Source: Patescibacteria group bacterium
GTDB lineage: Bacteria; Patescibacteriota; Patescibacteriia; Patescibacteriales; UBA12465
DNA: 64,000 bases
Reading direction: 5' to 3'
NCBI GenBank assembly: GCA_041656935.1
Contig: JBBACQ010000004.1
Location: 8,557 to 72,556 of the forward strand
This document shows, in pieces, positions 2,936 through 61,410 of the stretch (positions are counted from its first letter, which is position 1; each line of letters starts with the position of its first letter). A program made the translations under genes and the position numbers. The notes beneath the pieces were generated by a model. The model had not been told where the DNA came from and did no database searches. It was given only the letters and a program-made list of their open reading frames with translations.

Positions 2936-2960
2936 AATTTTGATAACTTAAATTAAATAT

Positions 2961-2994
2961 AAAAAAAATCGACCCTTGTAGGCCGATTTTTTTT
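2961..2994. terminator. Bidirectional intrinsic-terminator-like hairpin between the tRNA cluster and the convergent pilin gene.
   Basis: aaaaaaaatcgaccc-ttgta-ggccgattttttttt. Stem of 7 bp with one mismatch. Flanked by an A-run and a T-run. Confidence 0.45.
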
Positions 2995-3013
2995 ATACTA
3001 AATATTCTATAAA

Positions 3014-5647: not shown

Positions 5648-7147
5648 TTATTTGGAGAAATATTTACCAAAGTCGTCGTCGCTAATATTATTAATCTGAT
5701 TATTTTTATTTTTTTCCTCATCAGTTTTTATTTTTTTATCTTTCTCGACACCAGAAATCGAATCATCATCTGAAATTTCTATACGACTATTATCTTCTTC
5801 AGCTTCTTCATCTTCTGATCTCTCGCCTGCCTCAATCTCAGAATTTAAATCCTCTTCCAAAAATTCTACATCATTATTATTGTCACCATTATATTCTTCC
5901 CCTTTCTCATCCTCTATGTCATCATTCGAATTATCTTTGTTTTCTATCTCTTCTATATTATTTTCATCTTCGTCATTATTTTCATCTTCTTCAGAATTAT
6001 TTTCTAATTCTTCAAAAACTAGCGGGCTCTCCTCTTCTTTATAAAGATAATCGTTAGGGCTCTTGCTGGCAGACCTATTATGAATTGGGGTTGAAGAAAA
6101 AGGATTAGACAAAGTATTTTCATATTGCTCTTTAGAAACCATTATCTCTCTAGGTTTAGAACCATTGCTCGGACCAACCATCCCTAATTCCTCTAACATA
6201 TCTAAAATACTGGCCGCTCTAGAATAACCAATTCTCAATCTTCTTTGTAAAAAGGAAGTGGATGCCTTACCGCTAGACAAAACAATTTCTTTAGCCTCTT
6301 CTAACAATTCGTCTTCATCTCCCATTAAACCATCTAAACCAACTCCACCGATACCACTAACTTTTTGTCTCTCAGTTATTCCCTCTAAATAATCAGCGGT
6401 TCCATATTTTTCTTTTATATAAGAAACAATAGAGCTGATTTCTTCATCACTAACATAGGCTCCTTGTATTCTTTTTGGTTTAGATAATTCAGCGGTAGTA
6501 AAAAGCATATCTCCTTTACCTAACAATTTTTCAGCTCCCGAAGAATCTAAAATTGTTTTAGAATCTACCGCCGAAGCCACTGAGAAGGCAATTCTGGCTG
6601 GAGTGTTGGCCTTAATCAAACCAGTAATAACATCAACGCTGGGTCTTTGAGTCGCTAATATTAAATGAATACCAACCGCTCTAGACATTTGAGTTAATCT
6701 AATAACACTGCTTTCAATATCCTTAGAAGCCGAAACCATTAAGTCAGCCAACTCATCAATAACAAAAATAATATAAGGTATTTTTTCTTTTCCATTTTGA
6801 TTATAAGTTTGAATATTCTTCTTGCCCGCCCGATTTAACATTTCATAACGACGATCCATTTCGTTTAAACACCATCTTAAAGCATTGATAGTTTTGCTAA
6901 CTTCAGTAATAACTGGAGTTAGAAGATGAGGAATGCCATTATAGGTCGGAAGTTCTACTCTTTTAGGGTCAACTAATATAAAGCGTAAATCATCAGGATT
7001 GTTTTGATATAGTAAACTGACAATAATGGTATTTAAACAAACCGATTTTCCAGAATTAGTCGCTCCGGCCACTAATAAATGAGGCATCTTAGCAATGTCA
7101 TAGACTATATTTTTTCCAGAGACATCTTTTCCTAGGCCGCCATTAAA
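5648..7147 (-). CDS. ftsK: FtsK/SpoIIIE DNA translocase, C-terminal segment. Carries the RecA-like motor and winged-helix gamma domain, then a roughly 130-aa acidic tail. The frame is open upstream of the annotated Met back to 7147.
   Basis: In-frame upstream of MPHLL reads FNGGLGKDVSGKNIVYDIAK MPHLLVAGATNSGKS (Walker A). FVIDELADLM (Walker B). Gamma domain SFLQRRLRIGYSRAASILDMLEELG. Confidence 0.8.
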   Translation of the reverse strand, partial: FNGGLGKDVSGKNIVYDIAKMPHLLVAGATNSGKSVCLNTIIVSLLYQNNPDDLRFILVDPKRVELPTYNGIPHLLTPVITEVSKTINALRWCLNEMDRRYEMLNRAGKKNIQTYNQNGKEKIPYIIFVIDELADLMVSASKDIESSVIRLTQMSRAVGIHLILATQRPSVDVITGLIKANTPARIAFSVASAVDSKTILDSSGAEKLLGKGDMLFTTAELSKPKRIQGAYVSDEEISSIVSYIKEKYGTADYLEGITERQKVSGIGGVGLDGLMGDEDELLEEAKEIVLSSGKASTSFLQRRLRIGYSRAASILDMLEELGMVGPSNGSKPREIMVSKEQYENTLSNPFSSTPIHNRSASKSPNDYLYKEEESPLVFEELENNSEEDENNDEDENNIEEIENKDNSNDDIEDEKGEEYNGDNNNDVEFLEEDLNSEIEAGERSEDEEAEEDNSRIEISDDDSISGVEKDKKIKTDEEKNKNNQINNISDDDFGKYFSK

Positions 7148-8313
7148 TTAGTTTGTCTATTTTTGAAGTCTCTCTCTTCTAAAACTTCTCTTAAACCAAC
7201 AATAGCCTTAGTTTTGTTAGGGACCTCAATTCCAATTAAAGATTTGCCCGGTATTGGAGCTTCAATTCTAATCGGATGCGCCGCTAAAGCCAATGATAAA
7301 TCATTATTCAAGGCTGTTATTTTTGAGACCTTTATACCCTCTGAGGGTTTAAAAGTATATTGAGTTACAGTTGGACCAACATTAACTCCCCCCATTTCTA
7401 CTAAGATACCAAAATTCTCTAAGGTCCTTTGTATTATTAAAATATTTTTATCAATATCTCCACTAGTGGCCTTATTAATTTTATTGCTTAAAAGCTCCAA
7501 CGGTAAATCAATTTTAATTTTTTTAGTTTTCCAATTAACATTTTCTCTTAGGACTTCTTCTTTTTTCCCTAAATCCTCAGTTCTGTTATTAGAAAACCCT
7601 ATTTCTTTTTTAACAAATAAGACATCCTGATCTTCCGCTAAATTATCATCTTTATTTTTTTCATTTTTTATTTCCTCTTCATAATTATTTTGATTTTCAT
7701 CTTCGGTCGAATATGAATCTTCCTCCGAAATATCATTAATCTTAAAGAAATTAGAAATTGATCTAAATATTTGAAATAAAAAACTTTTTGACCCCACCAA
7801 ATGAGACAAAGTAACATTAAATAATAATATAAGCGACAGGGCTAAAATTGCTAAAATCACCACCAATCCTCCCCAAAAGCCCAAAGAGTTTTCTAAAAAA
7901 AGTGATAAGTAAAAACCTAAGTATCCCCCGCCCAGTCCTTCGCTGGCTTTAATTTTGGCAATATCATTTTTATAGAAAAAATGTAGTAATGATGAAATAA
8001 AGATAAAAAATAATGACAAACCAAAATAATTAGACTTCTTAGAAAAAAATTTATTCTTTTTATAAATAGCGATACTCAAAATGATCAATAAAAAAGGAAA
8101 AAGCCACTTACTCCAACCAAAAATTAAGGACAAAATATCATCTAAAAACAAACCAAAGCTACCAGAAAGAGAAAAAAGCGATAATAAACTCAGTAAACCA
8201 AAAACAAAAATCAACAAGGCAATAATGCTTGTTTTTATAATAATTTCCTGATTTCTATCATCTTTTAAATCAGGCTCTTGCTCATTATGGTCTTTTTGAC
8301 GTTTTCTCTTCAT
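7132..8313 (-). CDS. ftsK: FtsK N-terminal segment: polytopic membrane domain, linker and the start of the motor. It ends at a TAG that the downstream segment bypasses by a -1 shift.
   Basis: Multiple TM helices. Ends ..NRQTNLMAA*. The -1 frame continues LGKDVSGK.. without a stop. See findings. Confidence 0.7.
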   Translation of the reverse strand: MKRKRQKDHNEQEPDLKDDRNQEIIIKTSIIALLIFVFGLLSLLSLFSLSGSFGLFLDDILSLIFGWSKWLFPFLLIILSIAIYKKNKFFSKKSNYFGLSLFFIFISSLLHFFYKNDIAKIKASEGLGGGYLGFYLSLFLENSLGFWGGLVVILAILALSLILLFNVTLSHLVGSKSFLFQIFRSISNFFKINDISEEDSYSTEDENQNNYEEEIKNEKNKDDNLAEDQDVLFVKKEIGFSNNRTEDLGKKEEVLRENVNWKTKKIKIDLPLELLSNKINKATSGDIDKNILIIQRTLENFGILVEMGGVNVGPTVTQYTFKPSEGIKVSKITALNNDLSLALAAHPIRIEAPIPGKSLIGIEVPNKTKAIVGLREVLEERDFKNRQTNLMAA

Positions 8314-25877: not shown

Positions 25878-25906
25878 TTGACATTATATTTTAAATATGA
25901 TAATAT
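25878..25906 (+). promoter_or_regulatory. Candidate sigma70 promoter for the 26054 gene.
   Basis: TTGACA, 17 nt, TAATAT. Confidence 0.4.
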
Positions 25907-26053
25907 CGACCATTAAAACTAGTTCCTTGAAAACAATCTTTTTTCATTTTAATAACGGTAATATTAGGTTAATTATTTAATTTATTTAATTAGGAAAATT
26001 TAGATAAATTAAATAATTAACTTAATATCTAACCTCTAAAAAAATGAAATGAA

Positions 26054-26911
26054 ATGAAAGAAGTTAAAAAAATTGTTCAAAATTATTTCTTGTCTTTTAG
26101 CGAAGGAACGGGAGCTGGTCATGGTCTTGTTTTTTATTGTCTTTTTTTATTTGCATTATTTATTTTTATTTTTTCACTCCCCTTAACGGAATGCTTGTGT
26201 GATCCCTTCTATAAAACATTCGGAATTATAGCTGGGTCAATCGCTTTTGGCTTCCCTATAGTGAGCTACCTATTGTGCAAAATAACAAGTCGCAAATTTA
26301 TTTCAGTCCCACCAGAAAAAAGAAGTTGTCACGATAGTGCGCTTCTCTTAGTGAGAGACGAGCAGGTCATCTCTAGAATAGGCGTGGCCTTCGGTTATCA
26401 AGAGGAAAAAATAAATCTCCAGAAGCCAATCTGGAAAAAAGGAATAATTTACCAAATAGTCACCGGCTGGAAGGGAGTTGCTTATTGGCACTATTCGAAA
26501 AACGATGAAAATGGAAATACGGAAGATGTATTTGTTATTGAAACCGAAGTTTCGGGCCGACACAAAAACTCCACAATTACAATCCCCGTAAAAATAAAAA
26601 TTTACACAGGAGAAGAATTCGATCCGATTGAAGTTTTTAACAAAATCTCCCCTGGCCCAAAGGAAACTACTATACTCCTCGGGAAGTATCTCCAAGATTT
26701 TTTCGTTAGAATAAACGAAAAAAATCAGGAAGGAATCCAAAAATTAATAACCGAATATGCTGAAATGAAAATTTCTGATTCGGTTTTAATGAGTGAGATA
26801 GTTGATCTCCTAATTTTCCCGGAAAAACTATTTTCCAACATTGAAGATGTCCAGATATGTTTGGACACTCCAATAACCACTTCCTGCAAGGGAATGGTCT
26901 GCGGAAAATAA
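26054..26911 (+). CDS. Hypothetical membrane-associated protein with no recognised domain. G+C is higher than neighbours.
   Basis: ORF with one or two N-terminal hydrophobic helices and multiple Cys. Coding-like composition. Confidence 0.5.
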   Translation: MKEVKKIVQNYFLSFSEGTGAGHGLVFYCLFLFALFIFIFSLPLTECLCDPFYKTFGIIAGSIAFGFPIVSYLLCKITSRKFISVPPEKRSCHDSALLLVRDEQVISRIGVAFGYQEEKINLQKPIWKKGIIYQIVTGWKGVAYWHYSKNDENGNTEDVFVIETEVSGRHKNSTITIPVKIKIYTGEEFDPIEVFNKISPGPKETTILLGKYLQDFFVRINEKNQEGIQKLITEYAEMKISDSVLMSEIVDLLIFPEKLFSNIEDVQICLDTPITTSCKGMVCGK

Positions 26912-35583: not shown

Positions 35584-35627
35584 TGCTTATGTAATTCTTT
35601 TTATGGAACTTTTTTTAACCCTCCTTC

Positions 35628-35801
35628 GCCAAGTATAGCCACTTCGTGGCACTTGGCTACGGCGGGCAAGCATAAAAAGTGTCTAAAAAAACTTAACGAA
35701 CTAAAAAATTTTGGATTACTCACTATAGCTTTTTTATGCCACTTTTTTAAAAAAGTGGCGCAAAAACTTAGCGAACTTTAAAATTTTGGATTACTCATTA
35801 T
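35628..35801. repeat. Two tandem structured units. Each is a GC-containing hairpin followed by a conserved roughly 40-nt box.
   Basis: Hairpin A gccaagt-ata-gccac-ttc-gtggc-acttggc (35628-35657). Box 1 at 35685-35726. Hairpin B gccactttttt/aaaaaagtggc (35738-35759). Box 2 at 35762-35801. Boxes about 88% identical. Confidence 0.6.
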
Positions 35802-37252: not shown

Positions 37253-40200
37253 TTACACATAAGTAACGCTCGCTACCATATCATTTTCGTCTTTAAAGCG
37301 CATAATTCGGACTCCTTGAGTATCACGACCCAATTCATTAACTGTTTTATAAGGCAAACGAATAACCTGACCTTTATCAGAGATAATTATTAAATCCTTG
37401 CCCTCCATGGTATCTTTGTTTATAACAAAAGCATTACTAATTTTACCAGTCTTAGTGGTCACTTTAGCTGTTCGAATACCACTACCACCTCGACCCTGAA
37501 CCTTATACAAATCCAAATCCGTCCTCTTACCATAACCCTGATCCATAATGGTCAAAATTTGATAATTCCGTTTTACTCCTTTCTCAACCTTGATAATTCC
37601 CATTCCAACAACAATATCATCTTTCTTTAATTTAATACCTCGAACACCGGAAGCATTCCGGCCCATATCACGCACCTCTTTTTCAGAAAATCTTATCGCT
37701 TGGCCATTAGCAGTTATTAAACTAATATGATCAAGCCCGGAAGTTGGTTTTGACCAAATCAATTTATCATCATTCTTTATTTTTATCGCTATTAAACCAC
37801 TGCGACGAACATTAGAGAAAGAATCAATTTTAACTTTTTTAACCAAGCCTTTTTCTGTAGCGAAAAATAAATAATTATAACCGGCAATTTTATCTAGCGG
37901 TAAGATAGAAGTAATTTTTTCTCCACCAATTAACTGCAAGAAATTAACAATCGGAGTTCCTTTAGCCGTACGAGAGGCTTGCGGTATTTCATGAGCCTTT
38001 AATTGGAATACTCGCCCCTTAGTAGTAAAGAATAAAATATCATTATGGGTTTGAGTAATAAACATAAAATCAACCGAATCTTCTTCTTTGGTTGTTAAAC
38101 CGATAACACCCTTACCCCCACGAGCTTGAACCTTAAAAGTATCAGGATCTAATCGCTTAATATACCCATCCCGAGTCATCATAATCATAGTTTCTTCATT
38201 GGGTATTAAATCTTCAATATTAAAATTCTTAACACCATGAGCTACTACTTGAGTTCGACGCTCGTCCCCAAATTTTTCTCCCAATTCAGCAATCTCAGTT
38301 TTAATAATATTTCTAATTTTAGTTTTAGAAGCTAAAATTGCCTCTAACTCTTTAATCAATTTTAATTTTTCTTTTAATTCATCTTCAATTTTAATACGTT
38401 CCAAATTAGCCAAACTCTGCAATCTCATTTCCAAAATAGCCACCGCCTGTCTTTCGGACAACTTAAATCTCTTTATTAAACTTTCCTTAGCTACGTCTTT
38501 ATCTTTTGAAGCTTTAATAACTTTAATAACTTCGTCAATATTTTTTAAAGCAATCATTAAACCTTCCAAAATATGAGCTCTGTCCTTGGCCTTATTTAAT
38601 TCAAATTCAGTCCGACGATAAATTACATCTTGACGATGTTTAATATATTCCTCTAAAACCATTTTTAAAGTTAATACTTTAGGTTGAATTCCATCAATTA
38701 AGGCTAAAATATTAACATGGAAGGTGCTTTGTAAAGCAGTATTTTTGTACAAGCTATTTAATATTTTTTTCGGATAAGAATCTTTTTTCAAATCTAAAAC
38801 AATGCGAACGCCCTCTTTATCAGACTCGTCTCGTAAACCTCTAACTCCATCTAACTTTTTATCTTTTACTAAATCAGCAATTTTTTCTACCAAAGTCGCC
38901 TTATTAACCTGATAAGGAAGCTCGGTAATAATTATTTGGAAATTTCCATTTTTCTCCTCTTTAATATCAGCCCTTCCTCGACAAACAATTCCACCCTTAC
39001 CGGTAGCATAGGCATTCAAAATATCTTTTTTATCATAAATAATTCCACCGGTTGGGAAATCAGGCCCTTTGACATGCTCCATTAAATCCTCCACCGTAGA
39101 GTCTGGTTGGTCAATTAATAAATTTATTGCTCCTAATAATTCTTTTAGATTATGAGGCGGAATATTAGTGGACATACCGACCGCAATTCCCATCCCTCCG
39201 TTTAGGAGTAAATTAGGTAATTTAGCCGGTAAAACTTGCGGTTCTTTTTGTGAGCCATCATAATTAGGAATAAAATTAACGGTATCTTTATCAATGTCAA
39301 ATAATAATTCTTCTGTAATACTAGCTAATTTTGCTTCAGTATTATGATTTATAAAACCATTAGCTACAAAAGAGTGACAAGTGCTCCCTACTTTAATAGA
39401 ATAAACATTTTCTTTTTCGACCTGAGTTTCAACTAGCTTCACCTGATTAAAAAAGTAATGATTTTCTAATAAGTAATCGACCATTTTCAAGTCAGAAGAA
39501 TTTAAAATGCTCTTTAATTTACAATAATTTTTTCTTAAGCTATTATAACGATCAAAATTATTTTTAACTATAAAACTATTTTTATAATTTAATCTTAAAT
39601 AATTGTTTAAAAATGGAATAAAATCATTATGGCTTAAACGAGTAGTATTAATCTCCGATATCTTAGATAAAATCTCTCTTTTACGTTGAGAAAAAAAGTT
39701 AATATTTTTTTGAAAATTTACAATACTATCAACTCCCGAGATTATTAATTTATAACAAGCATTTCTCTTATCCTGATAAGGCGAAGTGGTAACTACACCA
39801 AAATTTAATAAAACTGTTTTCAGCTGATTGATAAGTTTTTTGCTTTTAGAATTATAGTTTAATTCAATTGATTTTCCGCCGTGTCTTTGGTCTTTTTTAA
39901 AAGAAACCGAACCATCACCCTCAAATAAACCTCGTAAAAAAGAACTTATTACTGCTCGGCTAGACATTAAAACTGAAAAAGGAATTTCTTTTTTATCAGA
40001 TAATTTAGTAGCCAAGCCAATTTCTTGTAAAAATTCCACAATATTTTTTTCATAAATACAAAGCTCCGGACAATTACCCTTCAGAACTCTTTCATATAAT
40101 TTAACTCCCGGAAATAACTGAGAAATTATATTTCGAACCTTGCCATAAAAATCTTTATCTGAATTACAGAAGAAAAATTTGTTTTGGTGGAAAGACCCTT

Positions 40201-41212
40201 CTGATACTAAAGCTCCTAAAAGAAAAGCTAGGTCTTTATTCATTTTTTTAGGTAGGGTAATTTTTTTACTCTTAGGGCTTTCTAAAGGAAAAAACTTTTC
40301 TAAACTTAAATCATTTTTAGAAAATAGCGAAGCCGAACGGCTTAAGGGCAAGAAATCATTTTTATTGATATTTTCTAAAGCTTTCCAATAAAAATAGGGC
40401 TGACCAAATTCATTTAAACCCCATAATAATAACGGATGATTAAATGAACCCCGAATTTCATAGCCCTGCTCAGTGGTTATTTTTATAATTGAATGCTTAC
40501 CAGAATCGAAAAATTTAGTAGCTGGCTTAACCTTCCCTTTATAATTTAAAATATTTATTTTTATTTTATCTCCACTTTTAGGGGCAAGATTTTTTATTTC
40601 CACTATCCCTTTATCGGTTAAAAGTAGAGTATCACCAGAAACACAATATCTCATCGCGGCGGCATTATCACCATCCATCGAACCAAAGTTTCCCTGACCA
40701 CGAACCAAAGGATAACGCATTGAGAAATCCTGAGCCATACGAACCATAGAATCATAAACAGCACTATCACCATGCGGATGGTATTTACCTAAAACTTCTC
40801 CCACCACAGTAGCTGACTTACGAAATTTAGCGCTAGCCTTTAAACCAATATCCCACATAGCATACAAAATACGACGATGAACTGGTTTCATACCATCACG
40901 GACGTCAGGCAAGGCGCGAGAAACAATAACGCTCATGGCGTAATCTAAATAAGAAGAACTCATCTCTTCGCTAATAGACTGATTTTGTACTAAACCGTAT
41001 TCGGTTTGACGACGACCATTACCATTAACTGCTGAATCAACCACGGCTTCATCACCATTAAGATCAGCCTCAATAACTACCGCATCTTCTTTAATAACGG
41101 GAGCTTTTTTTTCAATTATATCTTTCTTAACAACCTTTTTGTTTTTAGAAGTCTCTGCGCTGGAAGAAACTTTTTTGGGTGTTTTATCTTTTTTGTCTTT
41201 TTCTTTTTTCAT
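37253..41212 (-). CDS. gyrA: DNA gyrase subunit A interrupted by an in-frame intein. Also carries a roughly 70-aa Lys-rich N-terminal extension.
   Basis: [32 protein letters not shown]. Active-site AAMRY followed by an intein. After the intein, TEAKL... resumes the GyrA sequence. C-terminal beta-pinwheel repeats. Confidence 0.9.
39341..40645 (-). mobile_element. Intein (435 aa) with a LAGLIDADG homing-endonuclease domain, inserted immediately after the catalytic Tyr of GyrA.
   Basis: Begins Cys (AAMRY|CVSGDTLLL) and ends ..VANGFINHN|T. LAGLIDADG-like blocks [14 protein letters not shown] and [15 protein letters not shown]. Coordinates verified codon by codon. Confidence 0.8.
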
Positions 41213-42356: not shown

Positions 42357-42449
42357 ATTTTTTTATTTTACTTAAATTATATTTATAAAAAAACATTTCT
42401 TATCTAATTATAAAAAATATAATTACAGCAAAATTAATTATAGATAAAA

Positions 42450-43323: not shown

Positions 43324-44511
43324 TTAGCGATATGACCGCCACTCATCCCATTTGAGAAATTTAGATTGGCTTGATTTTTCAACTAAGCCTAGGTCTAAAA
43401 TTTCCGTAGTTCTTTCTCCGTGCCCATAGACGATTGTCATGACGGGCCCTGATTTTAAACGTGCTTTGATCCTCTGGCGAGCTGGAATCACCATCCCAAC
43501 CCACTTGATTCCTGAAAATGCATCAATCTGAACCCTTTCAGAAGACCTTAAGGTGTTTTTTGGTGCTATATACTTTTCCGGTACGAAAATTGTAACATCT
43601 TCGCTACGGGTATTGTATAGGTTGACCAATGTTGTTTTGCCGGCAACCTCGCTTCCCTTAGCAAAAAACAAGGGATTGAAAGTTCCTTCATCGAAAATAA
43701 AGCTTCCATTTCTGACAATCAAGGTAACTGGAATTTCCGGAGAAATCCCCGTTGGAAGTTTCACTCTGGCAATGAAATCATAGGCTCCATTTTTGGGCAT
43801 ACGAGAAGCCAAAACTTTGATTTCATCTTTGCCACCGGGTGCTAGGGCAAACGAAACGCCCAATTCCTCGCTGTAAACAACGCATTCGTAATTAACTTCC
43901 GTACTTACTTTTAAAGTAAGACTTGGTATTCCGAGATCCTCGTCAGTGATAGTTGCCCTGAACAAAGGTCTTTCCCCAGCGAACTGAGAATAATCTTTGT
44001 CCTTTTCGATGACCGGCTCCAGCAAGAAAACCAAATTTCTTTTGATCTTCTTACCATCAAGTTCAAACTCGGCAAAACAGGTCACGTTTTTTGCACGTGA
44101 AGTGTTAATAACGAGATCAAACAAACCAGCCTCGATCATGGCGGTCGTTTTATCGGCTCCTTCGTCCATGTCGTTCATAAAGTTCAACAAGGGCAAAAGA
44201 TCTCCCGTACGAAACGAGAAGTCGAAATCAGCGATGAGTGCATTCGATTGTGGAAAGAATTCCACTTTCGACACAATACTCCCCCAATTACCCGAAAGAT
44301 CCATTTTTTTATACTCGGCCGGTGTGAGTTTCAAATTCTGAGCGAACTCAGATTTGTTCTCAATAATAATCTTGGCCAACATTGGGGCCTTGACCCCGGC
44401 TTTGTAGTCATTAAATGACTTGGCATCTTTGGTTTCCTGGGCAAAGCCAGAAAAAGATACTGCAACAAAAGATACTGCAACAATAACCAAACTAATTAAT
44501 ACTTTCCTCAT
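43324..44511 (-). CDS. Secreted hypothetical protein (395 aa) with an N-terminal signal peptide. G+C markedly above genome background.
   Basis: MRKVLISLVIVAVSFVAVSFSGFAQE signal-like N-terminus. No recognised domain. Confidence 0.55.
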   Translation of the reverse strand: MRKVLISLVIVAVSFVAVSFSGFAQETKDAKSFNDYKAGVKAPMLAKIIIENKSEFAQNLKLTPAEYKKMDLSGNWGSIVSKVEFFPQSNALIADFDFSFRTGDLLPLLNFMNDMDEGADKTTAMIEAGLFDLVINTSRAKNVTCFAEFELDGKKIKRNLVFLLEPVIEKDKDYSQFAGERPLFRATITDEDLGIPSLTLKVSTEVNYECVVYSEELGVSFALAPGGKDEIKVLASRMPKNGAYDFIARVKLPTGISPEIPVTLIVRNGSFIFDEGTFNPLFFAKGSEVAGKTTLVNLYNTRSEDVTIFVPEKYIAPKNTLRSSERVQIDAFSGIKWVGMVIPARQRIKARLKSGPVMTIVYGHGERTTEILDLGLVEKSSQSKFLKWDEWRSYR

Positions 44512-44549
44512 GATTTGTTTCCTCCATTTAAATTTAATTTTTAATAATT

Positions 44550-44599
44550 TTAATTGTTAAGCTAAACAACATCTAAATATTAGCTAACTTAACAATTAA
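44550..44599. promoter_or_regulatory. 50-nt imperfect palindrome in the 5' leader of the 43324 gene.
   Basis: TTAATTGTTAAGCTAA-n18-TTAGCTAACTTAACAATTAA. A second copy lies at 45432-45482. Confidence 0.5.
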
Positions 44600-44643
44600 A
44601 ATATTAATAATGCATGTAAAAGTACTTTTTGTTTTAATGTAGA

Positions 44644-44672
44644 ATTATAGCATATATATTTTTTTTTGTCAA
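44644..44672 (-). promoter_or_regulatory. Consensus sigma70 promoter for the 43324 gene.
   Basis: Minus strand TTGACA, 17 nt, TATAAT. Plus-strand tgtcaa at 44667-44672 and attata at 44644-44649. GGAGG RBS 9 nt before ATG. Confidence 0.6.
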
Positions 44673-44837
44673 GGCTTTTCCCAAATAACCAAATTACTGC
44701 TGTTTTAAGGGCTAAAATAGGGCTAAAGAGAACAAATCTAATAAAAACTTAAAATATAAAATAATGAATAAACTATTTTAAAAAATAATAATTTTAAAAC
44801 AATTACTCTGAAAACATCCTCCCATTAACCAGACAAA

Positions 44838-44866
44838 TAAAAAAAGCAGAAGTTATTCTGCTTTTA
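44838..44866 (-). terminator. Intrinsic terminator after the 44884 gene.
   Basis: aagcagaa-gtta-ttctgctt with A-run/T-run. The 29-nt sequence is identical to that at 45683-45712. Confidence 0.65.
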
Positions 44867-44883
44867 GACTGTTTGGGCGGAGA

Positions 44884-45402
44884 CTAAAAGTCTCCCAACA
44901 TGTCCTCGAACATTGTCTCGAGGTCATCAAAGGAAAAACTACTACTTCCACCTTTTTTCTTGGTCTTCGACTTTGGCTTATCCGAAGAAGCGATTGCTCC
45001 TTCAGTTTTTTTGGCCTCAGCTTCAGCCGTTTTTTTCTTTTGTTGGTTTAATTGCCAATATAAATTGGCAACTCTCTTTTTCTCGGCTTCTCCAGCCTTA
45101 ATCAGAGAGTCCTGAATTCTTTTGCTTTCAATATCGGCCCTTTGAAGATCGCCAATGTCGTTTTTAAGACCATTGATAACTCCATCTGTTTCAATAAACT
45201 TATCGACATGAGCGTCCAAACGATCTGAGTTCAGGTTTATTTTCTTATTTAATAACGAGTCATTCCGATACAAAGCTGTATCAGCCTTATCAAGACGATA
45301 AACCTCTTGCTTGACATTTTTCTTGCCACTTGAAAATCCTATTATCACTACCAGCAAAAAAACAACGGACACTACGGCCCCAATAATCAGATTTTTGTTC
45401 AT
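44884..45402 (-). CDS. Hypothetical single-pass membrane protein with a coiled-coil ectodomain and Lys-rich acidic tail (172 aa).
   Basis: N-terminal TM IIGAVVSVVFLLVVIIGF. No recognised domain. Confidence 0.5.
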   Translation of the reverse strand: MNKNLIIGAVVSVVFLLVVIIGFSSGKKNVKQEVYRLDKADTALYRNDSLLNKKINLNSDRLDAHVDKFIETDGVINGLKNDIGDLQRADIESKRIQDSLIKAGEAEKKRVANLYWQLNQQKKKTAEAEAKKTEGAIASSDKPKSKTKKKGGSSSFSFDDLETMFEDMLGDF

Positions 45403-45431
45403 CTTATTTTAATTTTAAAGGTTATAAAAAT

Positions 45432-45482
45432 TTAATTGTTAAACTAAACAATATCTAAAATATTAGCTAGTTTAACAATTAA
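45432..45482. promoter_or_regulatory. Second copy of the leader palindrome.
   Basis: TTAATTGTTAAACTAA-n15-TTAGCTAGTTTAACAATTAA. Confidence 0.5.
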
Positions 45483-45527
45483 AAATTTTAACCACCTTGG
45501 TAAAGATCTAAATAATTTTAATAGGTA

Positions 45528-45556
45528 ATTTTAACATATAAAAAAATATTTGTCAA
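45528..45556 (-). promoter_or_regulatory. Sigma70 promoter for the 44884 gene.
   Basis: Minus strand TTGACA, 17 nt, TAAAAT. Confidence 0.55.
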
Positions 45557-45684
45557 TAGTGCATAAATACCAATAAAAACAAGCTTTTTTATCTATTCCT
45601 CAAATTAATAGAAAATTTGTTTTTTGAAAAAAGATTAATCGAAAAGAGCAAAGCGAAGTCGTTTTTAGCCTAAAAAGAGAAAAA

Positions 45685-45712
45685 TAAAAAAAGCAGAAGT
45701 TATTCTGCTTAT
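45685..45712 (-). terminator. Intrinsic terminator after the 45732 gene. Identical to the 44838 copy.
   Basis: aagcagaa-gtta-ttctgctt. Confidence 0.65.
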
Positions 45713-45731
45713 AATTTGTCAAAAAAGAACT

Positions 45732-46283
45732 TTATCTGTCTTTTTTATAAAAGCGTTTCGGCCACCAGGGCGAAGCAGTTGGTGCTTTTTTCACGGGCAG
45801 ATTTTTAGAATTAGAATCTTCAACAGAAACCTCTTCAAAAAACCTTTCTGATACATCAGGCACAATTGGTTTTTCAATAACCTCTTTTTGATTATTTTTC
45901 CCAAGCTCTTTTTCCAAAGCCAAAATTTTTCGGTTCATTTTGCGATAAAGAGAAGCCTGCTCCTTCTCTATTTTTTCCAGCTTCTCCAGTACGACACTAA
46001 ATATCGTATCATGCTGATTCTTAGAAAAATTTAATTCCTCTACTTCTTTTTTAAAGGAATTTATTTTTTCCTCTAAATCGAAGTGGGAACCCCCGACTTC
46101 ATTTCTTAACTCAAACCTGAAATCTTGATTTTCTTTTTCGACCTCAGCTTTAACTCCTCCAATTTGAGAGCTTACGCTACCTGTCAACTTTGAAAAACCA
46201 ATTATTATGGCGATAGTTATCACCAAAATTCCACCAACAATTACCAGCACCAACGTTTTCCCCTTTTTTTCTCCTTCCGACAT
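45732..46283 (-). CDS. Hypothetical single-pass membrane protein with a coiled-coil region (183 aa).
   Basis: TM LVLVIVGGILVITIAIIIGF. Coiled-coil heptads. Confidence 0.5.
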   Translation of the reverse strand: MSEGEKKGKTLVLVIVGGILVITIAIIIGFSKLTGSVSSQIGGVKAEVEKENQDFRFELRNEVGGSHFDLEEKINSFKKEVEELNFSKNQHDTIFSVVLEKLEKIEKEQASLYRKMNRKILALEKELGKNNQKEVIEKPIVPDVSERFFEEVSVEDSNSKNLPVKKAPTASPWWPKRFYKKDR

Positions 46284-46332
46284 AATTCCTCCTATTTAAA
46301 ATTGTTAAAAAAACTAATAATAATGATTTTAG

Positions 46333-46361
46333 ACATTAATACATTTTAAAAAATAAGTCAA
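46333..46361 (-). promoter_or_regulatory. Candidate promoter for the 45732 gene, divergent from the next promoter.
   Basis: Minus strand TTGACT, 17 nt, TAATGT. Confidence 0.4.
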
Positions 46362-46371
46362 TAGCTACCCC

Positions 46372-46400
46372 TTGACACAATTAATTAAATATGCTATAAT
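46372..46400 (+). promoter_or_regulatory. Consensus sigma70 promoter for the 46513 gene.
   Basis: TTGACA, 17 nt, TATAAT. About 105-nt leader. Confidence 0.6.
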
Positions 46401-46512
46401 TAAGAATCGTAATAATCGTACCTTTAAAAAGATTAAAATTTAACGAGAAGATTAAAAAGTTCTTTTTTTAATTTTTTAGTTAAATTTTAATTAACCTATA
46501 AAAAATCAAGAA

Positions 46513-47058
46513 ATGGAAACATACGAACTGAAACAGTTGATAAGAAAAGACGGAGAGGTAATCGGAGCAGAATTCCAAAACGGACAGAAGTTAATGATCT
46601 CCCAGTGGGACCATAGCACCCTGGCCGAATTCGAAAACGTAAGTTTTCGTACTCCGGTAAAAGAGGGTAAATTTTTACAATTCGTGAATTCTCCCTTAAC
46701 CCTGAAGCCTGACGGCAATATTTGTCAGATACCTTCATATTGGAGGTACGGAGTGAAAATTGGTGGTCAAATCATTACCAGAACATTTCGCTTCTCTTGT
46801 GACGAAGGAAGTAAAAAAATAAATCAACTTCCCTTCGGCACAGATGTTGTCGGAAGGGCCAAAATTTGCCTTTCCACCAACAAAAAAACTGGAGAAAAGC
46901 GAGTGATAGTGGATTATTTCATCTACAGCGACCAAAAAGTGGTTGCCCAAAATGAAGTAAAAATCGGAGGAAAAACCAAGCCCTCCACCATCTGGACCGC
47001 ACCCATCCCCAAAACCGAAAGCAACATCGTTGTAAATAAGGTTGAACCCAAAAAATAG
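46513..47058 (+). CDS. Hypothetical protein (181 aa) with no signal peptide. G+C above background.
   Basis: ORF with an internal VKIGG repeat. No recognised domain. Confidence 0.5.
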   Translation: METYELKQLIRKDGEVIGAEFQNGQKLMISQWDHSTLAEFENVSFRTPVKEGKFLQFVNSPLTLKPDGNICQIPSYWRYGVKIGGQIITRTFRFSCDEGSKKINQLPFGTDVVGRAKICLSTNKKTGEKRVIVDYFIYSDQKVVAQNEVKIGGKTKPSTIWTAPIPKTESNIVVNKVEPKK

Positions 47059-52687: not shown

Positions 52688-55600
52688 ATGAGTGATTTTG
52701 ACTCAATTTCTAGTTTGTTGAAAGAAAATTCAGCCAGTTCTAATGATAATAATGCTACCAAGAAATTATCGAATAAACAACAAGAAATAAAAAATAAGGA
52801 AATAGAGAAACAAACACAGGCCAGAGCGCAAACTTTAGGCCTGTCTTATATTAATTTATTTGGTTTTCCTATCAGCCCCGAAGCCCTCACTTTAATAGAC
52901 GAAGAAATTTCTATAAAAAATGAAGTTCTTTGTTTTTTTTATGATGGGGAAAATGTCAGAATCGGAACCACTGAACCCAAAAACCCCGAAATTGAAAAAA
53001 TCATAAATAATATAAATGAAAAATATCATACTAAAAGCAATCTCTATTTGATATCAAAAAACAGTTTAGAACATGGGATAAAGATTTATCAAACAATTCC
53101 TAAAAATGAAATCACTAGTAAAGGTGTCCAGATTAAAGAGGAAGATTTAGAAAAATTTAAAAACGAAATAAACGATTTTAAAAGTTTAGATAAAAAAATA
53201 AACGAAGTTAGTATTTCTGACGTAGTTACTCTGCTCTTGGCGACGGCTCTAAAATCGGATTCCAGTGATATCCATATTGAATCGGAGAGTGAAGGAATTA
53301 TAGTAAGACTAAGAATTGATGGAGTTTTGCAAGAGGCCGCCACCATAAAAAAAGAGAGTTGGAGAAAAATAATTTCTCGCATGAAAATATTAGCGGGAGT
53401 AAAAATAAATATTGACGATAAACCTCAAGATGGTCGTTATTCAGTCTTTTTAAAAGACAGTCGGATTGATATTCGATCTTCTTTTCTACCAACCGCTTAT
53501 GGAGAAAGTGTGGTTATGCGATTATTAAAATCTAGCTCGGTTAGTTTGTCCTTTGACGATTTAGGTTTAAGAAAGCATAATTATCAAATATTGAAAAAGG
53601 AAATAGAAAAACCTAATGGGCTAGTTTTAACCACTGGACCAACTGGTAGTGGAAAAACAACCACTTTATACGCTATTCTAAACCAATTAAATGATTCTGA
53701 GACCAAAATTATAACCTTAGAAGACCCAATTGAATATCAATTAACTGGCATTAGCCAAAGCCAAATAGAACCAAAAAAGGGCTATACCTTTTCTTCCGGT
53801 TTAAGATCTGTTTTACGCCAAGATCCGGATATCGTTATGGTAGGAGAAATTAGAGACATCGAAACAGCCGAAATAGCCATTCAATCTAGCTTAACTGGAC
53901 ATTTGGTTTTATCAACCTTGCACACTAATGACGCTTCGGGAGTTATTCCTCGTTTAATAGACATGGGAATAAAATCTTATTTATTAGTTCCCTCTATCAA
54001 TGCTGTGGTTGGACAAAGATTAGTTAGAAAACTTTGTCCAGAATGTAAAGAAATTCATAAATTAGATGATGAGGAAGAAAATTTAATAAAAAAAATCTTA
54101 GCAGTTATATCTCCTAAAGCTGAAGTAGAAGTTCCCAGAAATATTCCGACCGTTTTTAAAGTTGGCCCCGGATGTCCAGCTTGTAATAAAATTGGCTATA
54201 AGGGCCGAACTGGTATTTACGAAATATTCACCATGAATGATAAAATAAAACAATTAACTTCTGACAATGCCCCTTCTTTCAGAATATTGCAACAAGCCAT
54301 AGAAAGCGGAATGATTACAATGCTCCAAGATGGAATATTAAAAGTTCTAGAGGGGCAAACTAGTTTAGAAGAGATTTATCGAGTAGTCGGAAATTTTGAT
54401 TATATTGACGAATTATATGACATTGCCATTTCCGAAACTATTAGTCGAGGAATAAAAATAGAAACCAGTGAGATGGCCAAGGCTAAAGAAATATTAAAAG
54501 ATTATTCTCAGATAAATACAAATATTGAAAAAACTCCGAGTAAGGAAATAATATCTTTGCTCTTGGCTTTAGCTATTACAACTAATACTGGAGATTTACA
54601 TATTGAACCAACTGAAAAAAATGTTAAAATTCGTTTTAGAATTGACGGTGTTTTACACGATATCACCGAAATACCTAAAAATACTTTTCTACCCTTACTG
54701 GGAGAAATAAAAATACTAATTGGGTTAGAAACAAATGTTAAAAAATCATCTATTGATGGCCGATTTGCTATATCATTACCAGACAGAAAAATAGATTGCC
54801 GAGTTTCAATTATTTCGGGTGGCTACGGAGAAACTATTGTTATCAGATTATTGACTGGAGTGGAGGAAACTTTAGATTTAGAAAATATCGGTCTAGCTGA
54901 ATATAGTTTAGCTATTTTAAAAAATTCCATTAAAAAAACCAGAGGAATTATTTTAACTACTGGACCAACTGGTAGTGGAAAAACAACCACCTTATACAGT
55001 ATCTTAAAAAATATTAATACCCCTGATGTTAAAATAATAACTATAGAAGATCCGATTGAATATCAAATGGCTGGAATAATCCAGACTCAAACCAATCAGG
55101 AAGGTGGCTATACTTTTGCCTCAGCCATGCGATCAATATTAAGACAGAATCCTAATATCATGATGATTGGAGAAATCCGAGATACTGAAACAGCTAAAAT
55201 ATCATTAGAGGCCTCCTTAACTGGACATTTAGTTTTATCAACCGTTCATGCTAACAGTGCCTCTAGCGCCATATCTCGTTTTATTGGTTTGGGAGTTGAA
55301 AAATCAACCTTAGCTAACGCTTTAGAATGTTCGATTGGTCAAAGATTGGTTAGAAAAATTTGTCCTTCCTGTGAAAAAGAAGAGGTTTTAATTACCCCTC
55401 AACAACGGGAAGAAATTGAAAAAATATTAGGAAAAATAAACAATAATAAAGTTACTATCCCTAAAGAATTGAAATTTTATCGCGGAAAGGGTTGTCCTAA
55501 TTGTGGTAATATTGGCTATAAGGGCCGACTTGGTATTTATGAAATAATGGATATAAGTCCAACTATTAAAAAAGCTATTATTGATAAAGAGGTTAATGAT

Positions 55601-55717
55601 CAAGAAATTGAAAAATTAGCCGTTGAAAATGGAATGGTAACTATGTTACAAGATGGGATCTTAAAAGCTCTAGCTGGGCTAACAACTATTGATGAGGTCT
55701 TTAAAGTCGCTAAGTAA
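52688..55717 (+). CDS. pilB: Type IV pilus/T2SS assembly ATPase (PilB/GspE family) containing two complete tandem ATPase modules in one 1009-aa chain.
   Basis: N-terminal GSPII_E_N-like domain. Module 1 has LTTGPTGSGKTTTLYAIL, ITLEDPIEY, VGEIRD, LTGHLVLSTLH and CPEC...CPAC. Module 2 has LTTGPTGSGKTTTLYSIL, ITIEDPIEY, IGEIRD, LTGHLVLSTVH and CPSC...CPNC. Confidence 0.85.
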   Translation: MSDFDSISSLLKENSASSNDNNATKKLSNKQQEIKNKEIEKQTQARAQTLGLSYINLFGFPISPEALTLIDEEISIKNEVLCFFYDGENVRIGTTEPKNPEIEKIINNINEKYHTKSNLYLISKNSLEHGIKIYQTIPKNEITSKGVQIKEEDLEKFKNEINDFKSLDKKINEVSISDVVTLLLATALKSDSSDIHIESESEGIIVRLRIDGVLQEAATIKKESWRKIISRMKILAGVKINIDDKPQDGRYSVFLKDSRIDIRSSFLPTAYGESVVMRLLKSSSVSLSFDDLGLRKHNYQILKKEIEKPNGLVLTTGPTGSGKTTTLYAILNQLNDSETKIITLEDPIEYQLTGISQSQIEPKKGYTFSSGLRSVLRQDPDIVMVGEIRDIETAEIAIQSSLTGHLVLSTLHTNDASGVIPRLIDMGIKSYLLVPSINAVVGQRLVRKLCPECKEIHKLDDEEENLIKKILAVISPKAEVEVPRNIPTVFKVGPGCPACNKIGYKGRTGIYEIFTMNDKIKQLTSDNAPSFRILQQAIESGMITMLQDGILKVLEGQTSLEEIYRVVGNFDYIDELYDIAISETISRGIKIETSEMAKAKEILKDYSQINTNIEKTPSKEIISLLLALAITTNTGDLHIEPTEKNVKIRFRIDGVLHDITEIPKNTFLPLLGEIKILIGLETNVKKSSIDGRFAISLPDRKIDCRVSIISGGYGETIVIRLLTGVEETLDLENIGLAEYSLAILKNSIKKTRGIILTTGPTGSGKTTTLYSILKNINTPDVKIITIEDPIEYQMAGIIQTQTNQEGGYTFASAMRSILRQNPNIMMIGEIRDTETAKISLEASLTGHLVLSTVHANSASSAISRFIGLGVEKSTLANALECSIGQRLVRKICPSCEKEEVLITPQQREEIEKILGKINNNKVTIPKELKFYRGKGCPNCGNIGYKGRLGIYEIMDISPTIKKAIIDKEVNDQEIEKLAVENGMVTMLQDGILKALAGLTTIDEVFKVAK

Positions 55718-61313: not shown

Positions 61314-61410
61314 CCCCTAAAGTCCGTAGAGTGTTTTGAAGAACAAAAATAAGTTTGAGGAGAGAGTATTCAAAAATATTCTAGTTCTTCAGCTCTACGG
61401 GCTTTAGGGG
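61314..61410. repeat. Roughly 97-nt inverted-repeat stem-loop: 18-bp GC-rich outer stem, 8-bp inner stem, 39-nt loop.
   Basis: cccctaaagtccgtagag (61314-61331) pairs with ctctacgggctttagggg (61393-61410). tgaagaac (61337-61344) pairs with gttcttca (61384-61391). Confidence 0.8.

Follow-up and report, generated by a model that had tools for sequence, protein, structure and literature searches.

The window analysed here, a 64,000-nucleotide (nt) stretch of contig JBBACQ010000004.1 from a Patescibacteria group bacterium, carries at 43.3-47.1 kb four unannotated genes, two of which share a long palindromic element in their predicted 5' untranslated regions (UTRs). The first of these two (43324-44511, minus strand) encodes a protein of 395 amino acids (aa) with a signal-peptide-like N-terminus. 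The second (44884-45402, minus strand) encodes a 172-aa protein that has a hydrophobic N-terminal segment, is otherwise coiled-coil-like and is listed as a hypothetical protein in a 'Patescibacteria group bacterium' metagenome-assembled genome (MAG). No Pfam family is assigned to either, and the two proteins are unrelated to each other. The remaining genes encode proteins of 183 aa (45732-46283, minus strand) and, divergently, 181 aa (46513-47058, plus strand). The two copies of the element, called hairpins A and B, lie on the minus strand in the 5' UTRs of the 395-aa gene (44543-44606, shared core 44547-44601) and the 172-aa gene (45425-45489, shared core 45430-45484), respectively.

The genes in question had been described as 'island genes', a misleading label: relatives retain both the 395-aa gene and the order of the genes around it, with proteins that are 36-44% identical. 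This order is GyrA, a small open reading frame (ORF), NDK, a metallo-beta-lactamase-fold protein, a 379-381-aa protein, one or two small membrane proteins, a divergent gene and aminoacyl-tRNA synthetases. The proteins at the position of the 395-aa protein are 40% identical to it in contig L104 and 36% in contig L106, and a related strain seen in Logan contigs L099 and L001 encodes one that is 88% identical. Homologues of the 181-aa protein, at 43-44% identity, stand in the same order in three other lineages. Judging from these comparisons, the four unannotated genes are not a recent island. The window as a whole has a G+C content of ~31% and a gene content typical of Patescibacteria housekeeping, with RNase Y (684-2198), HU, RecA, RuvB, RuvC and several aminoacyl-tRNA synthetases, together with type IV pilus genes and an intein-interrupted GyrA.

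Two leader hairpins and their predicted promoters

The original prediction placed a 50-nt element at 44550-44599 and 45432-45482, and both copies are found at exactly these positions. Its recurrence stands; its size needs correction, since the full shared unit is 55 nt long, with 50 of the 55 positions identical between A and B (shuffled sequences: mean 34, maximum 41). A 20-nt arm pattern with up to three mismatches gives four matches in the window, where 0.18 are expected: both elements, the opposite arm of B and one unrelated three-mismatch site at 7519. Covariance model R1 scores hairpin A at 75.8 bits and hairpin B at 78.5 bits.

The palindromic arms are real. In hairpin A a C.U 1x1 mismatch separates 19 base pairs (bp) from an upper 6 bp, which carry a loop of 4 nt, and the lower stem grows to 24 bp in the fold of the whole leader (24 bp plus 6 bp). 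In hairpin B the C.U mismatch lies between 17 bp and 7 bp, and the loop measures 3 nt. Both copies have the same outer arms (TTAATTGTTAA), which form perfect inverted repeats of 11-12 bp. The conserved features are the lower stem (UUAAUUGU / ACAAUUAA), a YUAG:YUAG box and the 1x1 mismatch. The apical loops vary, with 3 nt, 4 nt, ~14 nt, or ~28 nt containing an extra stem.

The location in the 5' leader is also as first described. The quoted elements begin 44-45 nt past the -10 hexamer, and between their ends and the ATG there are 38 nt in A and 29 nt in B; the stem starts 36-46 nt past the -10 hexamer (the start site itself being predicted), and the predicted 5' UTR measures ~120-130 nt in both genes. 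The initiation region of leader A is unpaired, GGAGG and the AUG starting 24 nt 3' of the extended stem. In leader B the flanks of the hairpin pair mutually, reaching the nucleotides just upstream of the AUG. GGAGG is absent from leader B, from the leader of the 181-aa gene and from that of a 285-aa membrane-protein gene elsewhere in the window (26054-26911, plus strand).

Both hairpins follow promoter-like sites. That of the 395-aa gene (44644-44672, minus strand; TTGACA, 17 nt, TGcTATAAT) agrees with the consensus at 12 of 12 positions and has an extended -10, and that of the 172-aa gene (45528-45556, minus strand; TTGACA, 17 nt, TGtTAAAAT) agrees at 11 of 12. The former, taken from TTGACA to TTCT with the spacer included (TTGACAAAAAAAAATATATATGCTATAATTCT), is identical over 32 nt in the window (44641-44672, minus strand), L001 (130-161) and L104 (4468-4499, minus strand). 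It is far better conserved than its gene, the L104 protein being only 40% identical. The promoter of the 172-aa gene shares its first 19 nt with that of a 163-aa gene at the same position in L104. Over 32 nt, the promoter of the 395-aa gene (44643-44674, minus strand) is 84% complementary to that of the 181-aa gene (46370-46401, plus strand); the two are inverted copies of a single promoter sequence and stand 1.7 kb apart, on either side of the 172-aa and 183-aa genes.

A further short motif accompanies these promoters. In leader A it reads ATTAAAAC (44631-44638, minus strand) and begins 6 nt past the -10 hexamer, which puts it at the predicted transcription start or directly beside it; in leader B it reads ATTAAAAT (45515-45522, minus strand) and occupies the same place. 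The composite pattern TTGAC-N16-20-TANNNT-N3-7-RTTAAAAY has three matches in the window against 0.01 expected, namely leaders A and B and the leader of the 285-aa gene, and a long hairpin lies downstream of each. The orthologous leaders of L001, L099, L104 and L106 contain this pattern as well. Since the purine of the motif is always the sixth nucleotide past the -10 hexamer, transcripts probably start with RUUAAAAY. The motif is at the same time the sequence at the base of the 3' arm of the hairpin (AAUUAAAA). The products of the three genes carrying this arrangement each have a signal-peptide-like or hydrophobic N-terminus.

Long leader hairpins are not restricted to A and B. A scan of the intergenic regions of the window found more long A/U hairpins directly upstream of genes, more stable on the sense strand, the clearest being those at 25957-26034, 46431-46492 and 42364-42443. 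The first (plus strand, ~29-32 bp) precedes the 285-aa gene and follows a promoter with ATTAAAAC at 25878-25919 (plus strand). The second (plus strand; 14 bp, a G.A mismatch, 14 bp) lies in the 5' UTR of the 181-aa gene, downstream of a perfect TTGACA-17-TATAAT promoter at 46372-46400; this fourth hairpin leader has no RTTAAAAY motif. Its sequence is unchanged in strain L099, and L106 and L108 have a 31-bp hairpin at the equivalent position (z-score -9.3). The sequences of these two plus-strand hairpins are unrelated to those of A and B. Across the lineage, ~30-50 nt separate the hairpins from the -10 of the strong sigma-70-type promoter upstream, and 20-38 nt separate them from the start codon downstream. 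The occurrence of unrelated hairpins at the same leader position favours a structural role over a sequence-specific regulator shared by the genes. The third hairpin (42364-42443, minus strand) is a 27-bp A/U hairpin in the 93-nt gap between the metallo-beta-lactamase-fold and NDK genes, with folding energies of -16.1 (sense) and -4.2 kcal/mol (antisense); it may be an intercistronic processing site.

An RNA structure probably maintained by compensatory change

The original prediction allowed either a dyad operator for a dimeric regulator or an RNA leader hairpin. The first line of evidence that bears on this choice is a strand bias in folding energy. Hairpin A folds at -20.6 kcal/mol in the sense orientation (z -6.2) and at -13.6 in the antisense orientation, and the corresponding values for hairpin B are -21.1 (z -7.7) and -15.7 kcal/mol. 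All wobble pairs, three or four per hairpin, are G.U on the mRNA-sense strand, and the antisense folds are 5-7 kcal/mol worse because these pairs become C.A mismatches. The same bias is seen in the hairpins of genes on the opposite strand, both at 46431-46492 (sense -21.5, antisense -12.1 kcal/mol) and at 25957-26034 (sense -28.0, z -8.4; antisense -20.6 kcal/mol). It therefore tracks the direction of transcription and not the DNA strand or the direction of replication.

The second line of evidence is covariation. The four substitutions between hairpins A and B all preserve pairing, one being a two-sided change from G-C to A-U. In the strain represented by L099 and L001, copy B differs by one base only, while copy A of L001 shows several pairing-preserving changes, including a flip from U-A to A-U, and a 22-nt apical insertion that lengthens the stem (z -6.9). 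The orthologous leader of L106 has a 5' arm (UUUAAUUGUCUAG) clearly related to that of the window (UUUAAUUGUUAAG), and its arms pair perfectly by way of two more two-sided changes (z -6.5). That of L104 forms a hairpin of 17 bp plus 12 bp (z -5.5). The hairpins of these two relatives thus measure 29-31 bp, although the proteins are only 36-40% identical.

When five copies, paralogous and orthologous, are aligned by MAFFT without guidance, 95.9% of cells form standard pairs and six pairs have changed on both sides, a result matched by none of 500 shuffles. Control alignments with partners slid by one to three columns give 27-50% pairing and no more than one covarying pair. The distance between the arms is far less constrained: from centre to centre it is ~39-40 nt in A and B, ~61 in L001 and ~75 in L106, which has ~28 extra nucleotides between the arms. 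Folding and covariation in the leaders, two of the checks proposed with the original prediction, both come out on the side of an RNA hairpin, as do the G.U strand bias and the retention of structure, whereas the ~36-nt variation in spacing speaks against the operator. On this comparative evidence the hairpin is a structure of the mRNA-sense strand that has been maintained by evolution, located within the predicted 5' UTR at a distance from its predicted 5' end as well as from the initiation region. The element is very probably an RNA hairpin under selection.

No third copy was found in the window by R1 run without filters; its best other match there is a terminator beside tRNAs (2946-3009, E = 0.04). 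A scan of 185,579 species genomes with the pattern of the 5' arm returned 96 stretches, all of them non-palindromic chance matches. The two-arm pattern had three matches in JGI metagenomes, all one unrelated sequence, and none in viral contigs, and BLAST of leader A against phage genomes gave no match. No further copy thus came to light, either in the window or in the collections scanned. Rfam 15 at gathering thresholds reports only three tRNAs in the whole window, and in E-value mode over 44400-46600 the best overlaps are mir-582 (18 bits, cut-off 84) and caiA (26 bits, cut-off 55.5). No description of leader hairpins in this phylum was found in the literature searched. A half-site had also been reported in the leader of the 183-aa gene at 45732; the 9-mer TTAACAATT is indeed present there (46300-46308, minus strand), but at chance frequency. 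It occurs eight times in the window against 3.65 expected, four of the eight occurrences lying within the two elements and four outside, and the leader of the 183-aa gene is unfolded (z +0.22).

The similarity between the leaders ends with the hairpin, in which A and B are 91% identical. Identity falls to 56% in the 5' leader flank, 54% in the 3' leader flank and 52% upstream of the -35 element, both leader flanks being at the level of shuffled sequences. The promoters are 72% identical, mostly through consensus positions. Moreover, copy A resembles copy B more than it resembles the orthologous hairpin of L001. The 172-aa and 183-aa proteins show no detectable paralogy (E = 0.21), so that gene duplication does not explain the common leader. 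The second gene of L106 and of L108 has a long leader hairpin of different sequence, and in L104 the 163-aa gene that stands in place of the 172-aa gene has a similar promoter but a short unstructured leader with no hairpin (z +0.12). As the orthologous leaders of the 395-aa gene retain a homologous hairpin, this hairpin appears to be ancestral, and its absence from the second gene of the L104 relative suggests that copy B was probably derived from A. The most likely history, to judge from these alignments, is that within the lineage of the window the leader of the 172-aa gene acquired the hairpin of the 395-aa gene by copying or conversion. Gene conversion or duplication of the module could have been the route.

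Possible roles of the leader hairpins

The element may be described as a cis-acting A/U-rich RNA stem-loop of ~25-30 bp, with one conserved 1x1 mismatch, in the 5' UTR of two putative envelope-protein genes. It is one case of a wider tendency in this lineage to equip mRNA leaders with long, near-perfect hairpins. We tentatively favour a role as a determinant of double-stranded RNA processing or stability, probably as an RNase III target, a reading that has close to an even chance of being correct. Helix lengths are 25-30 bp in A, 24-27 in B, 36 in L001, 29-32 in L104 and 31 in L106, all of them longer than the typical RNase III substrate helix of ~two turns (20 bp or more), and near-perfect helices of 25-36 bp are natural substrates of this enzyme. 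The variable apex combined with a conserved lower stem and mismatch points in the same direction. The half-life and the translatability of a strongly transcribed mRNA would then depend on how its leader is processed. For example, RNase III cuts a hairpin in the 113-nt 5' UTR of Staphylococcus aureus cspA, yielding a shorter, more stable and better translated mRNA (PMC3386247), and the hairpins described here might act in a like manner. Alternatively, still as a processing determinant, the hairpin could position cleavage by RNase Y or, once such a cut has been made, block RNase J.

A number of known systems offer points of comparison. RNase III-processed leaders and sites include the E. coli rnc and pnp leaders, the lambda N leader and the R1.1-type sites of phage T7. 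Like these, the present elements are long imperfect hairpins with a helix of over two turns, an internal mismatch and a variable apex, situated in a UTR of ~110-130 nt away from both the 5' end and the ribosome-binding site of strongly transcribed genes. They differ in having stems that are almost purely A/U with several G.U pairs, in showing no sequence similarity and belonging to no Rfam family, and in that one module is common to two adjacent unrelated genes; cleavage is here putative. A second group comprises 5' stabiliser stem-loops, such as those of E. coli ompA and the B. subtilis aprE and ermC leaders, and the stem-loop that guides RNase Y cleavage upstream of it in S. aureus saePQRS. 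The resemblance lies in the location upstream of the coding region and in an RNase Y/J-type decay, the gene for RNase Y being in the window. Classical stabilisers, however, sit within a few nucleotides of the 5' end, whereas ~36-46 nt precede the hairpin here if the predicted start is right. The hairpin could therefore act as a 5'-end protector only after an upstream cleavage. Taken with these cases, the element plausibly belongs to the familiar cis-acting stem-loops of 5' UTRs, of which it would be an undescribed example.

Several observations weigh against processing, or against selection on the hairpin in general. Within the 64-kb window, no ORF of at least 100 aa was found to carry a Ribonuclease_3 or dsrm domain, and the data do not separate RNase III from other structure-dependent mechanisms. 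The hairpin-free leader of the 163-aa gene in L104 implies that the structure is dispensable at that position. The high identity of A and B, set against the fast divergence of orthologues, could mean neutral copying instead of function. The whole A leader has a z-score of only -2.55, and A/U-rich genomes readily form A/U hairpins. Promoters and start sites are consensus predictions only. Finally, the five sequences in the covariation analysis represent three lineages, and a single lineage accounts for three of them, which are near-identical copies of type B or close relatives of these; with a sample this small and partly redundant, the evidence is good rather than conclusive.

The RNA structure could also act by another route, as a platform for a stem-binding regulator, as a translational standby site or insulator, or as a transcriptional pause. 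This is a possible though somewhat doubtful alternative, to which the same RNA-level evidence applies as to processing. The hairpins end 20-38 nt before the start codons, just beyond the footprint of the ribosome, and an insulator might keep the A/U-rich initiation region open, which is relevant as several of the genes lack a Shine-Dalgarno sequence (no GGAGG in leader B or in the leaders of the 181-aa and 26054 genes). In leader B, moreover, pairing of the flanks extends up to the nucleotides before the AUG, and the conserved lower stem, YUAG:YUAG box and 1x1 mismatch could together form a surface recognised by a protein. On the other hand, the unpaired initiation region of leader A argues against a general occlusion of the ribosome-binding site. 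The presence of hairpins of unrelated sequence at the same position speaks against a binder that recognises a particular sequence, conservation does not extend to the apical loops, and no candidate RNA-binding regulator was found. The 181-aa protein has an all-beta, soluble model of unassigned fold and no significant structural match.

A neutral or selfish palindrome, spread by gene conversion or by MITE- or REP-like insertion and kept by template-switch self-correction with no benefit to the gene, is unlikely. It would account for the abrupt end of the 91% identity at the borders of the hairpin, for the apparent concerted evolution of A and B relative to the L001 orthologue, for the hairpin-free leader in L104 and for the fast sequence evolution between strains. 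Yet only two copies exist in 64 kb, even by the unfiltered covariance model, and the genome, JGI metagenome and viral scans gave nothing other than chance matches. There are no clear target-site duplications, the flanks of B being complementary and not direct repeats. Template switching would not be expected to yield a G.U-only bias on the transcribed strand in both gene orientations, and the orthologous leaders retain the hairpin in place at 36-40% protein identity. REP/BIME, ERIC and the Correia elements of Neisseria are palindromes that are co-transcribed, fold in the mRNA and occur in tens to hundreds of dispersed copies. The present element resembles them as a near-identical palindrome found in more than one intergenic region, transcribed with a gene and possibly targeted by a double-strand-specific RNase. 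It differs in having two adjacent copies, none elsewhere in the window or in the public collections scanned, and no terminal duplication seen.

The remaining alternative, an operator at which a dimeric factor bound to the two TTAATTGTTAA arms would block initiation or elongation and co-regulate both genes, is very improbable: the perfect outer inverted repeats of 11-12 bp, identical in A and B, do recall dimeric-repressor operators near promoters, and a site downstream of a strong promoter would suit a roadblock repressor, but the variable spacing (incompatible with a fixed dimer), the joint change of both arms with complementarity preserved and the G.U asymmetry lead to its rejection. Indeed, the inner arms are C.A-mismatched on the DNA or antisense strand, full symmetry being reached only with G.U pairs, and the arms are 24-30 nt long instead of the 6-10 nt of such operators. 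The half-site 9-mer is not enriched outside the two elements, 11-mer matches with one mismatch are scattered in coding sequence, no gene for a helix-turn-helix or other regulator was found among the neighbouring genes, and the other leaders carry hairpins of unrelated sequence at the same position. Co-regulation of the 395-aa and 172-aa genes, which had been deduced from the recurrence of the element, is possible.

Other classes of element were considered and set aside. A terminator or attenuator does not fit a stem with two or three G-C pairs in 25-36 and no consistent U run across copies (the sequence past the stem in A is AAAAUUAUUAAAAA), and a terminator scan passes over the element yet reports the true terminators of the region. 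An RNA thermometer or sequestration of the ribosome-binding site is at odds with the unpaired GGAGG and AUG of A and with the weak flank pairing, near the AUG only, in B. In an integron attC site the core sites would have the order R''(RYYYAAC) ... R'(GTTRRRY), which is reversed here (GTTAAGY ... RCTTAAC); the element also lies 5' of genes with their own promoters, and no integrase was found in the window. The arms are just 4-28 nt apart, unlike those of an invertible promoter. A leader peptide is not supported, the sole short ORF, in the 3' arm of A, being missing from B. Dispersed palindromic repeats (REP, MITE or Correia-like) are set aside given the two adjacent copies only and the lack of direct repeats flanking B.

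A broader and rather speculative proposal, unlikely in its full form, is that the promoter, the RUUAAAAY 5' end and the long A/U hairpin constitute a lineage-specific cassette. It would define a post-transcriptional regulon of fast-evolving envelope proteins in host-dependent Patescibacteria, be read by a dedicated double-stranded RNA nuclease or binding protein and be portable between genes. The copying of A into B suggests such portability of the hairpin module. Gene regulation in Patescibacteria (Candidate Phyla Radiation) is almost unstudied because the organisms are uncultivated, and the locus provides a concrete and testable example of post-transcriptional control in this group. In rapidly evolving and strongly promoted envelope genes, leader hairpins appear to be kept by compensatory evolution while their sequences drift, one of them having been copied between genes. 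If the hairpins are RNase targets, they could serve as a handle for predicting highly expressed surface proteins and as an aid in the design of expression constructs. Beyond these points the element is an ordinary 5' UTR stem-loop, to which the recurring combination of promoter, RUUAAAAY and hairpin adds interest.

Other features of the locus and the window

The 172-aa gene ends in an intrinsic terminator (44842-44865, minus strand) with a G+C-containing stem followed by a U run, and a near-identical terminator stands after the 183-aa gene at 45691-45710. Over 36 nt the two terminator regions (44831-44866 and 45678-45713) share 94% identity (AAAAAAAGCAGAAGTTATTCTGCTTTT). It seems that these unrelated genes have exchanged their expression signals as modules. 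Within the 395-aa gene, an exact 15-nt tandem duplication (AAAAGATACTGCAAC twice, 44452-44481) in the region coding for the signal peptide gives the protein sequence VAVSF-VAVSF.

Two further hairpins, at 61317-61407 (~33 bp, -36 kcal/mol) and 35595-35687 (~30 bp, -34 kcal/mol), are intergenic, richer in G+C and located between minus-strand genes.

Chance matches to the arm pattern led to a ~70-nt stretch (CTAATGATAATTAATTGTTAAATTAGCTAATATTTTGCAGGAATTCATCACTTTAATCGAGTAGATT) conserved across many Ignavibacteria MAGs (L011, L033, L035, L036, L043, L047, L052, L061, L062, L084 and L097). It has no Rfam match in L036 6400-7400 and is possibly an undescribed conserved non-coding element, unrelated to the leader hairpins.

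Three large genes of the window have unusual structures. The GyrA gene (37253-41212, minus strand; 1319 aa) contains an intein with a LAGLIDADG homing-endonuclease domain; the GyrA proteins of L104 and L106 measure 852-855 aa, consistent with absence of the intein. FtsK is present as two adjacent ORFs (5648-8313, minus strand), one with the 4TM and alpha domains (7132-8313) and the other with the motor and gamma domains (5648-7087), representing either a split gene or a frameshift. A PilB-like ATPase of 1009 aa (52688-55717, plus strand), about twice the usual length, has two separate T2SSE matches and could be a tandem fusion or the result of an insertion; its counterparts in relatives are of the same length.

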